Origin: a virus
Length of the DNA: 64,000 bases
Virus record (IMG/VR): IMGVR_UViG_3300032323_003820
Span: 30,521 to 94,520 of that record
Direction: 5' to 3' (one strand)
The position numbers and the translations under genes are program-made. Under the pieces are notes generated by a model that was given only the letters and a program-made list of their open reading frames with translations, searched no databases and was not told where the DNA came from. Below are positions 29,034 to 52,737 of the stretch, in pieces (position 1 is the stretch's first letter; each line of letters begins with the position of its first letter).

Positions 29034-29456
29034 GGGGAAGACATGGAATCGACTGCAATATGTAGGTACAAGTGGCATGTCGGAGCTGAATTAACTCCGT
29101 AAAAACTGATTTAAAAAACAAATGGCAATACTTTTGCTAAGATGTCTGCTCTCGGTTTGATGAGAGAAGCGTCTGTTGTTGCTGCGTAATCGTAGAGAAC
29201 AACACTCGGGTCGGTAAGGACATACACCTAGGAACAGAAGTCCATGAGGTCTAACAAATACCGCGTGATTCAGTTCAGGAAATTTGTTTGGTGGTGTTTT
29301 CGGTTCAAGCCAACTTAATAGGAACCGACCACAGTTGTTAGTTCTAATGGAAAAATAAGAACTATCTATTTGTTGATTGAGAACTAATCAAATAAACATG
29401 TAGTCATTTGTGGTTGCTATTGCAAGACGAGGGTTCGAGTCCCTCCTTCTCCACCA
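29034..29456 (+). ncRNA. ssrA: tmRNA; predicted tag (A)GNTFAKMSALGLMREASVVAA at 29124-29189
   Basis: GGGGAAG/CTTCTCC acceptor with G3-U, 5' GGAATCGAC, T-arm GAGGGTTCGAGTCCCTC, ACCA end, internal frame ending Ala-Ala-stop. Confidence 0.93.
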
Positions 29457-29594: not shown

Positions 29595-31847
29595 ATGTTA
29601 AGAAATTTATTTTTATTATTGGTTTTACCAATATTCAGTTTTTCCCAAGACACATTGTTCAATCAAAAGTTAGATGAAGTTAAAATTAAAAGTACAACTA
29701 AGAAAGAAACCAACATTGCAGTAATCAATATTGTAAGAAACAGTTCAGTCGTTTCTGATGGACTTTCAGTAGAGTTTATCAAAAAAACTCCTGATAGAAC
29801 TGTCGGAGATGCCCTCAAAAGAGTAAATGGAGTAACAATTCAAAACGACAAGTTTGTTTTGGTTAGAGGATTATCAGATAGGTATAATTCAGCAATACTT
29901 AATAAAACTCTTCTTCCTTCAACTGAACCTGACAGAAGAGCATTTTCATTTGATATTATCCCATCTAACTTAATAGATAATATTATTGTTTCAAAATCAG
30001 CAATCGCATCATTACCTGGCGATTTTGGTGGTGGTATAATTCAGGTGAACACTAAAGATGTATCGAAAAATTTTTTTACGATAGGAATGGGTTCGGGTTA
30101 CGGGACCGTTTCCACATTCCAAAAATTCAGCTCGGTGGAATATATTCCGTTTCCCATGAACTTTCCGTCCACATACGATTTTAGAGTTTCTTCAAATGGT
30201 GATAGAAGAGCGTTTACTAAACTAATAGGGTCTCCTAACTCTAAAACAACAAATTCATTTCCTAACCTAAATGGTAATTTGTCTTTTGGTTATAAAAAAG
30301 ATAAATGGAATTTGTTAATGTCGGCAAATGCAAGAAATTCATTTTCTCTAAATTTTATTGACAGACAAGATTATCAATCATCTACTGAATTGGCTTACAA
30401 ATATAAAGACACGTCATTTACAAAAGTATTTTTGGTTAATGGGTTAATGAACCTAACTTATTTAGGTCAAAACAAATATTCTTGGAAAACATTATTTAAT
30501 CACCAAATTGAAAATTCTTATCTGACAAGAAATGGTGAGAATTATGATAACGTACAAGATGTTAGAAGTAATTCTTCTAATAATATTGTTAAGACAATTG
30601 TAAATTCACAATTTGATGGTAAGATAAAAACTTTAGATTTTAATGTTGGTTGGAACTTGATGATTAGAGACCAGCCTGACTATAGAGTCAACCCTATTGC
30701 AAAGTCATTAGGGACGAATACAGAGTATACAACCGCTTGGAGAGACACATACAGGTTTTGGTCTGTAATGGACGAGAATTCATTCAATGGTTCGTTAAAT
30801 AAGGAGATAAACGATTTCAAGGTTGGTGTATCTTATTTGAAAAAATTAAGAAATTTTAAAGCAAGAATTTTCAGATATGATGCTGAAGATATGTTAAATG
30901 AAATAACAAATAACACTGACAAATATGGTGCCGATTTTGATTTGGGTGCTGGATATGTTCAATACGATAAAACACTTGGAAAACTCAAGGTAAATGGTGG
31001 ACTTAGAACTGAATATAATTTATTCAATGTCGAAACATCAGATTTCAGCGGACAACAGGTTCAGGTGAATAGAGAGTATTTGGACTTCTTACCTTCTATC
31101 AACCTTTCATATAATTTAGAGAAAACAAAATTCAGAACTTCATTTTCCAAAACACTTTCAAGACCTGAGTTTAGAGAAGTTGCTAATTTTGCATATTACG
31201 ATTTCGTAAGAAATGCACAACTCTTAGGTAATACAAATTTAGAAAAGACTGACATCTATAATTTAGACCTTAAGTGGGAATACTATCCAAAATCAGGTGA
31301 GAATGTATCAGTCGCTCTATTCGGTAAGAACTTTGTAAGACCAATAGAACAAATAGTGGCAGATGGTTCAGTACCATCCAATCTTCTTTTAACTTTCACA
31401 AATCCTGACAGAGCAAATGTTTATGGTATTGAATTTGAACTTAGAAAACAAATTAACAAATGGTTAGATGTTTATACAAATTCTACAATATCAAACTCAC
31501 ATGTTGAAGTTAATGGGGTGGGAAGACAATTACAAGGACAATCAAACTACGTGGTTAATGGTGGTTTGAATTTCCATAAAGGAAATAATACATTTAACAT
31601 TTCATATAACAGAGTGGGTGATAGAATTTCTGCAGTAGGATTTCAGGGTTATGCAGATATATTCGAAAACTCAAGAGACGTAATAGACATTGTTTACCTA
31701 TTAAAAATTAAAAACGGTGAACTTAAAATCGCGGTTGGTGACATATTAGCTCAACCAACGGTATACTATCAAAAAATAAACAACAGAGAGTTAATTAAAA
31801 CAAATAACGAACAAACTCTCTCGGTTTCGCTAAACTTAAATTTATGA
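29595..31847 (+). CDS. TonB-dependent outer membrane receptor
   Basis: Signal peptide, plug motif (DALKRVNGVT..VRGLSDRYN..FDIIPSNLID), beta-barrel repeats, C-terminal alternating strand. Confidence 0.9.
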   Translation: MLRNLFLLLVLPIFSFSQDTLFNQKLDEVKIKSTTKKETNIAVINIVRNSSVVSDGLSVEFIKKTPDRTVGDALKRVNGVTIQNDKFVLVRGLSDRYNSAILNKTLLPSTEPDRRAFSFDIIPSNLIDNIIVSKSAIASLPGDFGGGIIQVNTKDVSKNFFTIGMGSGYGTVSTFQKFSSVEYIPFPMNFPSTYDFRVSSNGDRRAFTKLIGSPNSKTTNSFPNLNGNLSFGYKKDKWNLLMSANARNSFSLNFIDRQDYQSSTELAYKYKDTSFTKVFLVNGLMNLTYLGQNKYSWKTLFNHQIENSYLTRNGENYDNVQDVRSNSSNNIVKTIVNSQFDGKIKTLDFNVGWNLMIRDQPDYRVNPIAKSLGTNTEYTTAWRDTYRFWSVMDENSFNGSLNKEINDFKVGVSYLKKLRNFKARIFRYDAEDMLNEITNNTDKYGADFDLGAGYVQYDKTLGKLKVNGGLRTEYNLFNVETSDFSGQQVQVNREYLDFLPSINLSYNLEKTKFRTSFSKTLSRPEFREVANFAYYDFVRNAQLLGNTNLEKTDIYNLDLKWEYYPKSGENVSVALFGKNFVRPIEQIVADGSVPSNLLLTFTNPDRANVYGIEFELRKQINKWLDVYTNSTISNSHVEVNGVGRQLQGQSNYVVNGGLNFHKGNNTFNISYNRVGDRISAVGFQGYADIFENSRDVIDIVYLLKIKNGELKIAVGDILAQPTVYYQKINNRELIKTNNEQTLSVSLNLNL

Positions 31848-38480: not shown

Positions 38481-38552
38481 GGTCTCGTAGTTAAATGGAT
38501 ATAACAGTCGCCTTCTAAGCAACTATTCGTGGTTCGATTCCACGCGGGACTA
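38481..38552 (+). tRNA. tRNA-Arg(TCT)
   Basis: Cloverleaf, loop CTTCTAA, GGATA D-loop (A20). Confidence 0.9.
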
Positions 38553-38614
38553 CAGGAGCTTCGGAAACTCAAAAGGGGAGGATTTATATTCTCCCCTTTG
38601 TATATTTATAAAGT

Positions 38615-45668: not shown

Positions 45669-45714
45669 TCTTTTTGGAACAAATTGAAAAAACTCAGACA
45701 TTGTCTGAGTTTTT

Positions 45715-46014
45715 TTATTCGTTGGTGACTTTACCCTGTTTTTTTAAACTTACAACAGCTTTGTCTACTCTAGAGTCAATTTTTTTTGATAATTCTGTAA
45801 ACTTGTGACTCATTTCTGATTTGTAGTCGGAATAATCTTTTTTCAAACTTTCCATATCTGACAAAAGTTTATCCTTTCTTTTAGTACCTCGATTTACCTC
45901 AATCCACATGAAGATGATGGTAATAGCAAAGATACCTAAAAAGAACATTGAGATTGGGTGTGGAAGCGAACTAACTGTCACTTCATCTGACATTTTAACA
46001 ATTTGTAATAACAT
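45715..46014 (-). CDS. Single-TM coiled-coil protein
   Basis: Hydrophobic segment then helical tail. Confidence 0.55.
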   Translation of the reverse strand: MLLQIVKMSDEVTVSSLPHPISMFFLGIFAITIIFMWIEVNRGTKRKDKLLSDMESLKKDYSDYKSEMSHKFTELSKKIDSRVDKAVVSLKKQGKVTNE

Positions 46015-46053
46015 AATATTTGATTTTAATTATAAAATTATTTCTAATACGGT

Positions 46054-46131
46054 TACTCCGACTCGTGATTCTGAGCTGTCACCATCAAGACAACAACTCT
46101 AGCGAGAGTCTACCCCCCAATGGGAGGAGTA
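46054..46131 (-). ncRNA. Unassigned structured RNA candidate
   Basis: GC-rich island with TACTCC/GGAGTA closing stem and internal stems; TATATTTG promoter element at 46144-46151 on minus strand. Confidence 0.5.
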
Positions 46132-46210
46132 TACGTCATGTTACAAATATAATTACATTTATAACACGAAGTATCAGAAACGTTTTTATTTCAATGAACA
46201 ATAAGTTCTG

Positions 46211-46281
46211 TGGATGGTGTAGGAGTCGAACCTACCTTAACTGAGTCGGAGTCAATTGTCTTACCGCTAAACGAACCACCC
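46211..46281 (-). tRNA. tRNA with CCG anticodon (nominal Arg) and alanine-type acceptor stem
   Basis: GGGTGGT TC GTTT AGCGGTA AGAC A ATTGA CTCCGAC TCAGT TAAG GTAGG TTCGACT CCTAC ACCATCC A. Confidence 0.85.
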
Positions 46282-46329
46282 TGCTAACATTTATAATTAT
46301 AATTTGAAAAAAAATGTGAATCAAATATT

Positions 46330-47019: not shown

Positions 47020-47029
47020 TTTTTTAGAG

Positions 47030-47101
47030 TGACCCCATTAGGATTCGAACCTAAACCGGCTCATTCGAAGTGAGACATACTATCCGTTATACTATAAGGT
47101 C
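47030..47101 (-). tRNA. tRNA-Arg(TCG)
   Basis: Cloverleaf, loop CTTCGAA, GGATA D-loop (A20). Confidence 0.85.
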
Positions 47102-49172: not shown

Positions 49173-49526
49173 TCAATCTTCGAATTCTAATTTTTTCGTT
49201 CGTATCATCCACTGTGGTCTATTACCTTCTTTCATATTCAATACCCACTCCTTTGCACTTGGGATATATCCATAACAATCTTCTGAAACATGTTGTTCAC
49301 CTACGTATCTTGTGTAAACTGTTTTTCCATCTGAATTTTTAAACTCAGTTCCAAACTTCTGTTCCATTTCGAAAATACCTTCACTATGATGTCTAAACAT
49401 TCTATGTAGAGAGTCACCATACCAAGATTTTGTCTCGTCTAACCATTCGTGTAAATGAATATAATCTTCAGGTTTTCCTCCAAATTTTTTTGCCGAAGAC
49501 TTTGCATGTAAATTAGGGTGTGCCAT
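49173..49526 (-). CDS. DUF6915-like His-rich protein
   Basis: MAHPNLHAKSSAKKFGG..HEWLDETK..HRMFRHHSEG..EQHVSED; likely start 49526. Confidence 0.65.
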   Translation of the reverse strand: MAHPNLHAKSSAKKFGGKPEDYIHLHEWLDETKSWYGDSLHRMFRHHSEGIFEMEQKFGTEFKNSDGKTVYTRYVGEQHVSEDCYGYIPSAKEWVLNMKEGNRPQWMIRTKKLEFED

Positions 49527-50106
49527 CTTTCCAAAAGTTTTTATTATAACCAAACATTTCGAATTGTGGTTTACAGATTTCGTAAACAAAATCTGCCGTT
49601 TTTTGATTATATTCAGTATACCAAGGCAATCTTACCTTATCAGTTTTATCTTTGAACTCATTTATATATTGATTTTCGATAACTTGTTCATGATAACCAT
49701 TACCCAAAGAAATAAAAAATTCTTTCAACGGTTTTATATTCATTAGGTCTTCATTATAAAATTCAGTCCTAACAAAGTAATCTGGTTTTTTGGGTAATAC
49801 TTCCAAATATAATGGAAGATGGAGTTGATAATCCTCTTCCCAATACTCATGTTCATATAACCATTCTTCAAAGTTTCTGTAGAAATCTCGATTGTGTAAA
49901 CACGATAACCAATAAATTGAAACTATTCTTGGTAAAGGATTTCTGATGTTGAAGACCAAAGTATAGTCTAACTTATCTTCAGGAATTGATAGCTCATGCC
50001 CTCTATTTACAAAACTATCACAATGTTTTAAAAGAGACACACTAGACCTTGTACAAGCCCTTTGTGGCATGAGCCAAACAACCTTGTATTTTTCTATATA
50101 CGACAT
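49513..50106 (-). CDS. Sulfotransferase family 2-like protein
   Basis: IRNPLPRIVSIY, VRTE, FEMFGY; similar to 40885..41493. Confidence 0.6.
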   Translation of the reverse strand: MSYIEKYKVVWLMPQRACTRSSVSLLKHCDSFVNRGHELSIPEDKLDYTLVFNIRNPLPRIVSIYWLSCLHNRDFYRNFEEWLYEHEYWEEDYQLHLPLYLEVLPKKPDYFVRTEFYNEDLMNIKPLKEFFISLGNGYHEQVIENQYINEFKDKTDKVRLPWYTEYNQKTADFVYEICKPQFEMFGYNKNFWKDGTP

Positions 50107-50304: not shown

Positions 50305-50793
50305 ATGGAGGAAGTATTGGTACTAAATTATGATTACAGCCCTTTAAATGTTACCTCCATAAAAAGAGGTTTCAATCTTGTATATAAAGGTAAGGCAGAA
50401 ATTATAAAATCTGATGTAAAAGATATTATCTGTGGAGTAAAAAACTTTGCAAGACCTTTAATAATCAGACTTCTAAGCTTCATAGCATTTCACAAAAGAA
50501 CATACAGAGCAAATAGAAGTAGAATATATAAAAGGGACAATTATGAATGTGTTTATTGTGGTTCAAAAAAAACATTAACTATTGACCATGTAATACCTAA
50601 GTCTAAAGGGGGTTCGAACTCTTGGGAAAATTTGGTAACATCTTGTTTTAAATGTAATTTAAAAAAAGCAAACAGAACTCCCGAAGAAGCTAAAATGAAA
50701 ATGAAGCATACTCCTTATGTCCCAACAATCATGAATGACAATTATGTACTATTAAATGTTTGGAATGATTTTCAAAAAACTTTATTTTCTTAA
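50305..50793 (+). CDS. HNH endonuclease (McrA-like)
   Basis: [29 protein letters not shown]. Confidence 0.9.
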
Positions 50794-51063: not shown

Positions 51064-52737
51064 ATGAAAATAATTGGGTTCAGCGTAGGTCACGACAGAG
51101 GGGCTGTTCTGATTGTTGACGGAGAAGTTATAATAGGTATAACTCAAGAAAGACTTAGTCGAGTTAAACACGATGGTGGATACATGGGAGGACAAATACC
51201 TATTGAATCTATTCAATATTGTTTGAATCATTTTGGACTTAAATTCTCAGACATAAATTTATGGGCATATAGTACAACAGAAGAGGTTGACGATGTTGAT
51301 GAAAAAATGACCTCAATTTTAGGTTATAGTTTGGGTGATAAACTACTTTTTGTTCCTCACCATCTCGCACATGCGTATTCTAGCTTCTTCAGTTCGAACT
51401 TTGACGAGGCAGCGGTAATTGTTGCAGACGCCTCTGGAAGTATTTATAACTCCAGAACAAAACTGTCTCAGTTTTATGATTTAGATACATCCGATTTACC
51501 AGAAGGAAGACAAATAGCCGAAGGTATTTCAATTTACCATTTCAAAAGAGATTCTTACTCAGAGGTTTTTAAAAAATGGATAAAAATACCACATCTTTGG
51601 GATACTGAAGAAGAGGAATGTACATCTTTGGGTGCTAGATATTCTGAGGGTTCCTTACAATTAGTTTACGAACAAACAACTCATAGTTGGAGTGCGGGAA
51701 AACTTATGGGTATGGCTTCATACGCTAATCAAAAAAAATTAGAGGAAATTCCAAATCTTGTACAAGAATTAGAAAATGACATTAATATACCAAATATAAG
51801 AATTCTTCCGAACGTGATATGGAATTCAGATTTCCAATCTAAATCCGATGTCGCAGGACTTTATCAAAGAGAACAGGAGCAAGCATCTGTCATATTATCA
51901 AGAATTGCGAAGAATTTAACATCATCGAAAAATGTATGCACTGCTGGTGGGTCTTTTCTCAATTGTAATTCTAACAGACTTATCTTAGATTCAGGGTTAT
52001 TTGATGAATGTTATTTTGTACCACCTTCCGATGACAGCGGTATCCCGTTGGGTTGTGCTTGGTTCGCATATCAAAAAATAGCTTTTGTAAGACAGTATAC
52101 ATTCCTTAGTCCCTACTTAGGTAAAAAGTATGATAGAAACGAAATCATTTCAGCTTTGAACGAAGTTCCTAATTTAAATGTTCAAGAGTTTGAAAGTTTT
52201 CCAACTTTATGTTTTGAAGTTTCAGAATTATTATCAGAAAATAAGGTGATAGGTTGGTTTCAAGATGGTTCTGAAATAGGTCCAAGAGCATTAGGAAATC
52301 GTTCTATAATAGCAAATCCAACTTCAAAATGGATAAGTAATTACATTAACTCTGAAGTAAAATTTAGAGAGTGGTATCGACCATTTGCTCCTGCGGTAAT
52401 TTATGAACATCAAAAGAAGATTTTTGATACAAACTTTTTCTCACCCTACATGCTAGTAACTGCTAAGGTTTTAGATGATTGGAAAGAAAAAATCCCTTCC
52501 GTCGTTCATATTGATGGAACATCTAGATTTCAAAGTGTTACTGAAAATAGTAACTTCAAATTTTATAGTTTACTTACATCTTTTTATATGACAACCGGAA
52601 TTCCTGTTTTATTGAATACGAGTTTCAATGGTCCTGACGAACCAATAGTTGAAACACCATCCAACGCAATCAATACTTTCTTGAAAAGGAATTTGGACTA
52701 TTTGGTTTTGAATAACTTTTTGGTTTCGAAACAATAA
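51064..52737 (+). CDS. NodU/CmcH-type carbamoyltransferase
   Basis: GHD, ERLSRVKH, HHLAHA, GKLMGMA, EIGPRALGNRS, RPFAP, LLNTSFN. Confidence 0.92.
   Translation: MKIIGFSVGHDRGAVLIVDGEVIIGITQERLSRVKHDGGYMGGQIPIESIQYCLNHFGLKFSDINLWAYSTTEEVDDVDEKMTSILGYSLGDKLLFVPHHLAHAYSSFFSSNFDEAAVIVADASGSIYNSRTKLSQFYDLDTSDLPEGRQIAEGISIYHFKRDSYSEVFKKWIKIPHLWDTEEEECTSLGARYSEGSLQLVYEQTTHSWSAGKLMGMASYANQKKLEEIPNLVQELENDINIPNIRILPNVIWNSDFQSKSDVAGLYQREQEQASVILSRIAKNLTSSKNVCTAGGSFLNCNSNRLILDSGLFDECYFVPPSDDSGIPLGCAWFAYQKIAFVRQYTFLSPYLGKKYDRNEIISALNEVPNLNVQEFESFPTLCFEVSELLSENKVIGWFQDGSEIGPRALGNRSIIANPTSKWISNYINSEVKFREWYRPFAPAVIYEHQKKIFDTNFFSPYMLVTAKVLDDWKEKIPSVVHIDGTSRFQSVTENSNFKFYSLLTSFYMTTGIPVLLNTSFNGPDEPIVETPSNAINTFLKRNLDYLVLNNFLVSKQ

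Follow-up and report, generated by a model that had tools for sequence, protein, structure and literature searches.

What amino acid does a transfer RNA (tRNA) deliver when its acceptor stem speaks for alanine and its anticodon for arginine? The question is raised by a gene for a tRNA with anticodon CCG in a 64,000-nucleotide (nt) stretch of viral DNA, referred to here as the window, which covers positions 30,521 to 94,520, the last 64 kilobases (kb), of the 94.5-kb IMG/VR virus record IMGVR_UViG_3300032323_003820. An earlier reading made from the letters alone (the sequence-only reading) had flagged the gene as a candidate mistranslating tRNA. We find the alanine marks of its acceptor stem to be fixed throughout a family of phage tRNAs, and consider it probable that the product is an alanine-identity tRNA and not a working arginine tRNA, its output being decoding, pairing with an adjacent leader RNA, or both.

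The gene scores 53.9 bits against Rfam family RF00005 (gathering score 29), and ARAGORN concurs, placing it at 46210/46211-46281 on the minus strand. Both bear out the cloverleaf, the CCG anticodon, U20 and the set G1-C72, G2-C71, G3-U70 and A73 that the sequence-only reading had described. Below G3-U70 the acceptor stem continues with U4-A69, G5-C68, G6-C67 and U7-A66 (Rfam alignment and ARAGORN drawing), followed by U8 and C9, a D stem of GUUU/AGAC and a 7-nt D loop, AGCGGUA, with U at position 20. U11 pairs with A24, the anticodon loop is CUCCGAC, the variable loop has 4 nt with residue 47 missing, and the T loop is standard (UUCGACU). All the features of a translating tRNA are present (U33, a 7-nt anticodon loop, G18G19 and the standard T loop); the 3' CCA is encoded incompletely, as C-A-G after A73. 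The remaining arginine tRNAs of the window, UCU (38481-38553) and UCG (47029-47101), both have GGAUA and so keep A20, as had been claimed.

In bacteria, alanine identity is set by A73, G2-C71, G3-U70, G4-C69 and G20, and arginine identity by A20, the main determinant, with C35, U/G36 and A/G73 (PMC9976931); G3-U70 alone has been described as sufficient for alanyl-tRNA synthetase (AlaRS) (PMC11415595). The window tRNA has all the major alanine elements (G3-U70, A73 and G2-C71, plus G1-C72) and keeps C35, G36 and A73 of the arginine elements, A20 being absent. Because the major alanine determinants are there and the main arginine determinant is not, charging by the host AlaRS is the best-supported reading of this molecule. 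The earlier claim that the determinant for arginyl-tRNA synthetase (ArgRS) is missing and the AlaRS acceptor set present holds, in the window and in its homologues alike. Domain searches of five records, among them a complete genome of 181 kb, found no AlaRS, ArgRS or glutamyl-/glutaminyl-tRNA synthetase (GluRS/GlnRS) domain, nor any FemAB, FemAB-like GNAT or aminoacyl-phosphatidylglycerol synthase domain. Nothing in them therefore points to a synthetase of the phage's own, or to a phage-encoded aminoacyl-tRNA transferase drawing on the tRNA for purposes other than translation.

Homologues were sought in IMG/VR and in JGI/ENA metagenome contigs with a pattern confined to the D arm and anticodon loop, the acceptor stem being left unconstrained. 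Matches in 21 viral and 97 metagenome contigs, parsed with ARAGORN, fall into two discrete classes, a and b. Class a, to which the window copy belongs, has 42 sequences (39 distinct) from freshwater and estuarine phage contigs of many samples. G1-C72, G2-C71 and G3-U70 are present in 42/42 and A73 in 41/42, the exception coming from a contig of 1.6-fold coverage. The pairs beneath this mark vary (4:69 is UA, GC or CG; 5:68 is GC, UA, AU or UG; 6:67 is GC or AU; G4-C69 occurs in 7/39 variants), and the G-U pairs at 12:23, 13:22 and 28:42 flip freely to Watson-Crick pairs, whereas G3-U70 never does. None of the 39 distinct homologues lacks G3-U70, and it is conserved together with CCG in related phages. 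Position 20 is U or C throughout. Among 768 distinct tRNAs from all fetched phage and metagenome loci, G3-U70 is found in 43/43 alanine tRNAs, 42/55 tRNAs with anticodon CCG and 5/670 others. By anticodon loop, class a splits into subfamily a1 (CUCCGAC, including the window copy) and subfamily a2 (CUCCGAA).

An unusual mix of identity elements, and nothing further, might suggest a decaying gene, a pseudogene drifting after duplication. In the class-a alignment (71 columns, 39 distinct sequences), however, 99.4% of cells pair, 12 of the 21 pairs show compensatory changes and all four stems covary, with a covariation score reached by 0/500 shuffles. This covariation refutes decay, to which we assign practically no probability; judged by the pattern of base changes, the window tRNA is a member of a functional phage tRNA family whose cloverleaf is under strong purifying selection.

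Class b comprises about a dozen distinct tRNA(CCG) genes (L024-L031, L185, L195, L199, L204, L214, L220 and others) with the a1-type loop and the same D arm, U1-A72, mostly A73 and no G3-U70. They are Gln-like, the copy in L028 adjoins a look-alike tRNA-Gln(CUG), and they may be CGG-to-Gln/Glu tRNAs. Could class a be charged likewise by GluRS or GlnRS, CGG being read as Glu or Gln, as has been proposed for Peptacetobacter, a bacterium in which CGG-to-Gln is predicted (PMC8629427)? The D arm, missing residue 47, anticodon loop, U8-C9, U11-A24 and 4-nt variable loop would fit, as would this sister class, and the best blastn matches of the tRNA body among isolate phages are annotated tRNA-Gln genes. 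Yet a scan for G1-G3 plus the compact D arm with any anticodon recovered genuine tRNA-Ala, Trp, His, Lys, Asp, Gln and Val with that arm, and overall identity of the body to 864 phage tRNAs singles out no isotype. Since the arm is shared by so many isotypes it is not diagnostic, and the idea of a Gln-derived body was dropped. Class a, moreover, the window tRNA included, has G1-C72, A73, C35 and G2-C71, where Gln needs a weak 1:72 pair, G73 and U35, and Glu needs U34/U35 and U2-A71. Neither Gln nor Glu is enriched at CGG sites in the residue count given below, and we regard this form of charging as very unlikely. Another metagenome contig, L269, encodes a tRNA-Lys(CUU) with the full G1-C72, G2-C71, G3-U70 and A73 set as well as two odd tRNA(CCG) genes; the lysine tRNA is possibly a further alanine-marked tRNA with a foreign anticodon.

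The use of CGG by the phages themselves bears on the competing readings. In a crude open reading frame (ORF) call, the 94.5-kb record has four CGG among 27,354 codons (CGA occurs 42 times), all four in a 135-codon frame nested in an open frame of 657 codons that the contig end cuts off. The credible ORFs of the record are hence without CGG, in agreement with the earlier impression that the codon is rare in this phage. The nested frame is antisense to a repeat-protein gene (G000:1-1971, minus strand). Over the class-a contigs (1.06 Mb) CGG is the rarest sense codon, at 83/263,223 or 0.32 per 1000, with a CGG/CGA ratio of 0.11 against 0.15-0.22 for other NNG/NNA ratios. It is the rarest in class-b contigs also. 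A Codetta-style count of residues in homologues within the class-a contig set found Arg at 0.35, Lys 0.26, Ser 0.10, Asn 0.08 and Glu 0.07 opposite 32 CGG sites, Ala falling outside the top six. In this the CGG sites are like AGA (Arg 0.36, Lys 0.25) and differ from CAG (Gln 0.42) and from the alanine control codons (Ala 0.40-0.53; GCG 0.53). Class-a phages avoid CGG, and the few remaining copies look like recent variants of arginine codons.

A private code that reads CGG as alanine within the phage's own genes would need just such an alanine-marked CCG tRNA. But with CGG sites so Arg/Lys-like, Ala so far below its level at true alanine codons, and no CGG in the record's credible ORFs, there is no sign of a CGG-to-Ala code, and we hold one to be extremely improbable. 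Reassignment of CGG, which the sequence-only reading had raised as an alternative, thus finds no backing here, and nothing speaks for its other suggestion, a nuclease decoy.

The same residues agree better with an ordinary arginine tRNA, charged by ArgRS through C35, G36 and A73, all present, and serving as decoder for rare CGG codons, with G3-U70 as a quirk of the lineage. Such a decoder might be useful where low-GC bacteria have little or no tRNA-Arg(CCG) of their own, and in our sample of 301 Bacteroidota genomes the tRNA-Arg(CCG) pattern was found in only 128. The 22 distinct genes read from these, however, all (22/22) have GGAUA with A20, U8-A9 and a Watson-Crick 3:70 pair, and 71/80 ordinary phage arginine tRNAs have A20, compared to 0/42 members of class a. 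Fixation of the alanine set while adjacent pairs turn over, and a record with no CGG codon in need of decoding, also argue against an arginine decoder. These phages, furthermore, often already carry an A20-bearing tRNA-Arg(UCG), one base change away from a CCG decoder. We therefore think this explanation unlikely.

In subfamily a1 the tRNA has a constant companion. All a1 contigs with at least 600 nt of downstream sequence (37/37) have a same-strand spacer of 160-250 nt and then an ORF of 85-100 amino acids (aa), an arrangement seen in 0/32 a2 contigs. Folded singly, all 35 distinct spacers form the same four-way junction; its closing helix, P1, has 14 pairs, 11 of them with compensatory changes (RNAalifold), and the window copy folds with a z-score of -5.7, the single other copy tested with -3.5. 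Across 18 lineages, whose leader alignment is 49% identical overall, the sole invariant block is AGUCGGAGU. This motif is the reverse complement of the whole anticodon loop plus one base on either side (9 nt, tRNA positions 31-39), and it occurs twice in the 64-kb window, once in the leader and once as the complement of the anticodon loop. An exact complement of the 7-nt loop lies within 400 nt downstream in 41/45 a1 contigs, versus 2/31 class-b contigs with the same loop; the two class-b matches sit in a tRNA cluster and were rejected as chance. For many lineages, folding predicts a helix between GGAG within the motif and a CUCC or GACUC that precedes it. A tRNA docking there would have to break up this internal pairing, much as a switch would require. 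No family, T-box included, matched the leader in an Rfam scan at E up to 10, and no conserved site able to pair with an NCCA end was seen. Two other accounts were rejected: leader-peptide attenuation, since none of the small upstream ORFs in the window's leader, read by eye, has CGG in frame, and, as the reason for the motif, a GANTC methylation site, since the flanking G is not conserved.

The leader's complement of the anticodon loop opens a regulatory reading of the tRNA and suggests a role in tRNA-leader pairing. At its extreme, the molecule would be mainly a non-decoding regulatory RNA, a dedicated ligand or cis partner of the leader, with CGG chosen to keep it out of translation and amino-acid identity mattering only for stability or as the signal sensed. 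The invariance of the 9-nt complement within a covarying leader, its presence in most a1 contigs, the fixed order of tRNA, leader and ORF, and a record without CGG codons would all be consistent with this. On the other hand, a2 (32 contigs) has the same tRNA design and no leader, the tRNA has every feature needed for translation, and the leader lacks both a T-box or other Rfam match and a conserved NCCA-pairing site. A purely regulatory function seems to us improbable.

The promoter-like site upstream of the tRNA and the hairpin at the end of the ORF (Table 1) suggest that tRNA, leader and ORF form one transcription unit, as far as consensus matches can indicate. The promoter match is a weak call, such sites being no commoner in the region than in shuffles. 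The downstream ORFs of a1 share an LPHPIS motif, one hydrophobic segment, a coiled-coil-like middle and a SKKxDSRVDKA end. The window member, P0001, belongs to a family with no Pfam or PHROG match; by its predicted architecture it is a small membrane protein that resembles a spanin. At an a2 locus, G008 (L063:1854-2231, minus strand), a 125-aa ORF near the tRNA has a weak match to Rz-like spanin families, so that a1 and a2 both lie beside possible lysis genes. The membrane-protein genes downstream of the a1 tRNA (26 distinct homologues) contain seven CGG in about 2,600 codons, against the background of 0.32 per 1000. These represent four to five independent events in the variable middle part, at Arg/Lys-type columns, and none is in the window copy.

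Table 1. Features of the tRNA(CCG) locus and of its surroundings, in window coordinates
Feature	Position	Strand	Remarks
tRNA, anticodon CCG	46211..46281	-	alanine-type acceptor (G1-C72, G2-C71, G3-U70, A73); U20; ARAGORN and Rfam RF00005
Anticodon loop plus one base each side (A31-U39, ACUCCGACU)	46244..46252	-	reverse complement equals the leader motif
Sigma-70-like promoter match	46296..46324	-	TTGATT-17 nt-TATAAT; 10 of 12; ends 14 nt upstream of the tRNA 5' end
Structured leader RNA, four-way junction	46028..46186	-	closing helix P1 and three hairpins; between tRNA and downstream ORF; z = -5.7
P1 5' strand	46171..46182	-	closing helix of leader
P1 3' strand	46040..46050	-	closing helix of leader
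Invariant motif AGUCGGAGU	46055..46063	-	displays CGG; exact complement of tRNA 31-39; between hairpin P4 and P1 3' strand
P0001, 99-aa ORF	45715..46014	-	N-terminal DEVTVSSLPHPISMF motif; one hydrophobic segment; coiled-coil-like middle; C-terminal SKKxDSRVDKA
Terminator-like hairpin	45687..45715	-	strong; 13 pairs; at ORF stop codon
Transfer-messenger RNA (tmRNA), one-piece	29034-29456	+	Rfam 106.9 bits; G3-U70 acceptor; predicted 21-residue tag GNTFAKMSALGLMREASVVAA
FkbM/FtsJ-like methyltransferase gene, 229 aa	46330-47019	-	between tRNA-Arg(UCG) and tRNA(CCG); position kept in closest relatives only
HNH endonuclease gene	50305-50793	+	within tRNA cluster, adjoins tRNA-Met; probably a homing element
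Nol-like carbamoyltransferase	51064-52737	+	flanks tRNA cluster
Weak sulfotransferase-like ORF	49513-50106	-	flanks tRNA cluster
M23 peptidase, 630 aa	42857-44749	+	flanks tRNA cluster

The alanine-identity tRNA that we favor would work as follows. The host CCA-adding enzyme would complete the 3' end, and the host AlaRS, guided by the acceptor stem and indifferent to the anticodon, would load the tRNA with alanine; ArgRS would use it poorly for lack of A20. The alanyl-tRNA(CCG) would then insert alanine at CGG codons translated in the infected cell, those of the host or of rival elements, and the phage would escape by not using CGG. In a1, the anticodon loop would in addition pair with the leader, in the precursor or in trans, and couple the tRNA to expression of the downstream gene.

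Several points weigh against this scheme. The minor alanine determinants are absent from the window copy, which has U4-A69 instead of G4-C69 and U20 instead of G20, and some arginylation or dual charging through C35, G36 and A73 is possible. The identity rules from which alanylation is predicted were established mainly in E. coli. CGG at Arg/Lys-type positions in relatives is also what an arginine-inserting tRNA would predict. The expectation of the sequence-only reading that host proteins would be hit harder than those of the phage is not supported: low-GC Bacteroidota are about as poor in CGG as the phage, with 0.3-0.4 per 1000 at 32% G+C (1.5-7 per 1000 at 35-40% G+C). A host as AT-rich as the phage would have few CGG codons, and hence offer few targets to a mistranslation weapon. 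As to the leader, its pairing with the tRNA cannot show covariation because both sides are invariant, and since a2 keeps acceptor stem and anticodon with no leader at all, the leader cannot be the whole function.

A more elaborate version of the alanine-identity reading, which we put forward tentatively and think somewhat doubtful, makes tRNA and leader a self-contained RNA switch, a T-box-like sensor supplied with a ligand of its own, through which the charging state of the host would be reported so as to time a late function. The tRNA would be orthogonal, with an anticodon for a codon that the phage never uses, and charged by an anticodon-blind AlaRS. When free, for example uncharged and not bound by EF-Tu, it would dock its whole anticodon loop on the CGG-displaying junction, displace the internal CUCC-GGAG pairing and so set expression of the spanin-like membrane protein. 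In a2 the tRNA would have different partners, or would simply mistranslate CGG as Ala.

Each half of this unit has relatives among known systems. With bacterial and phage tRNA-Ala the phage tRNA(CCG) shares the first three acceptor pairs and the discriminator; some genuine phage tRNA-Ala(UGC) have its compact D arm (L296 vs the L240 variant), and the phage's own tmRNA carries the same G3-U70 mark. It differs in having CCG and not NGC as anticodon, in the absence of G20 and, in the window copy, of G4-C69. The yeast Pachysolen tannophilus reads CUG as alanine by means of a tRNA-Ala(CAG) (PMC4937558), which likewise joins alanine identity to the anticodon of another amino acid, as is possible since AlaRS ignores the anticodon. 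There, however, the organism's own CUG codons stand at alanine positions, a true reassignment in a eukaryotic nucleus, whereas the phage avoids CGG and its residual sites are Arg/Lys-like. Acceptor identity and anticodon also disagree in other genomically encoded tRNAs with predicted or shown mistranslation, namely the tRNA-ProX of Streptomyces and Kitasatospora and G3-U70 mutants of tRNA-Pro, Cys, Thr and Gly (PMC11415595, PMC5389508). ProX has proline identity and a dedicated paralogue of prolyl-tRNA synthetase, in contrast to the predicted reliance of the phage family on host AlaRS, and the G3-U70 mutants are single mutations or rare variants where here an entire phage family is conserved. 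Peptacetobacter and other low-GC bacteria for which CGG reassignment is predicted (PMC8629427) similarly have a tRNA(CCG) that looks unlike an arginine tRNA, in a low-GC setting with CGG very rare; those tRNAs belong to cellular genomes in which CGG stands at Gln or Trp positions, they have not been reported to bear an alanine mark, and no phage case is known from that work.

The leader in turn recalls the T-box Stem I specifier loop (RF00230), in that a structured RNA upstream of a gene shows a codon to the anticodon of one tRNA, with that codon placed close to the structure's base, on its 3' side. It is set apart by complementarity over 9 nt, the whole loop, rather than 3-4 nt, by its lack of any Rfam match, and by a tRNA encoded just upstream of it, apparently in the same transcription unit; the kink-turn, the antiterminator and the NCCA-binding sequence of T-boxes are not seen in the phage leader. 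The tRNA falls among known dual-identity tRNAs, and it is the tRNA-leader unit that could be new in kind.

The record from which the window comes has 33% G+C and is estimated to be ~31% complete. Genes for a T4-like portal protein, a major head protein and a terminase lie in the window. Judged by the portal protein, its nearest isolates are a Microcystis phage and Flavobacterium phages (36-37% identity). Contigs from four freshwater or lake runs, belonging to four studies, contain near-identical DNA, whereas isolate phages gave no megablast match to the tRNA region or to 20 kb from a relative. Nine tRNA genes and one tmRNA are found in the record. The tmRNA lies 17 kb from the tRNA(CCG); similar ones occur in the close relatives G002 and G004 and in L240/L250, and none is detectable in the complete 181-kb relative G007. 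Only 5/85 class-a sequences have a tmRNA on the same piece, and in none of them is the tRNA(CCG) inside it. The carbamoyltransferase, the sulfotransferase-like ORF and the M23 peptidase that flank the tRNA cluster are auxiliary genes for modifying the surface or cell wall. Large proteins with long Gly/Ser-rich or Pro/Thr-rich repeats are encoded at G000:1-1971 (minus strand), upstream of the window, and at G007:173724-176927.

Full-text literature searches brought up no account of any phage tRNA in which alanine marks accompany an arginine anticodon. To our knowledge, genomically encoded tRNAs whose anticodon and amino-acid identity clash are very rare, and in bacteria have so far been confined to one actinomycete family. 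Here, to judge from the sequences, is a whole conserved family of them, widespread in phages of lakes and estuaries and apparently dependent only on the anticodon-blind AlaRS of the host. The leader, with its perfect complement of the anticodon loop, may represent a type of tRNA-sensing RNA that is new and distinct from the T-box family. If the tRNA is indeed alanylated, it would be a natural tool that rewrites one codon during infection, to which the phage is immune by not using that codon. It would then bear on host takeover, on competition among mobile elements, on how the reassignment of a sense codon may begin, and on the safety margins of recoded, "virus-proof" hosts.
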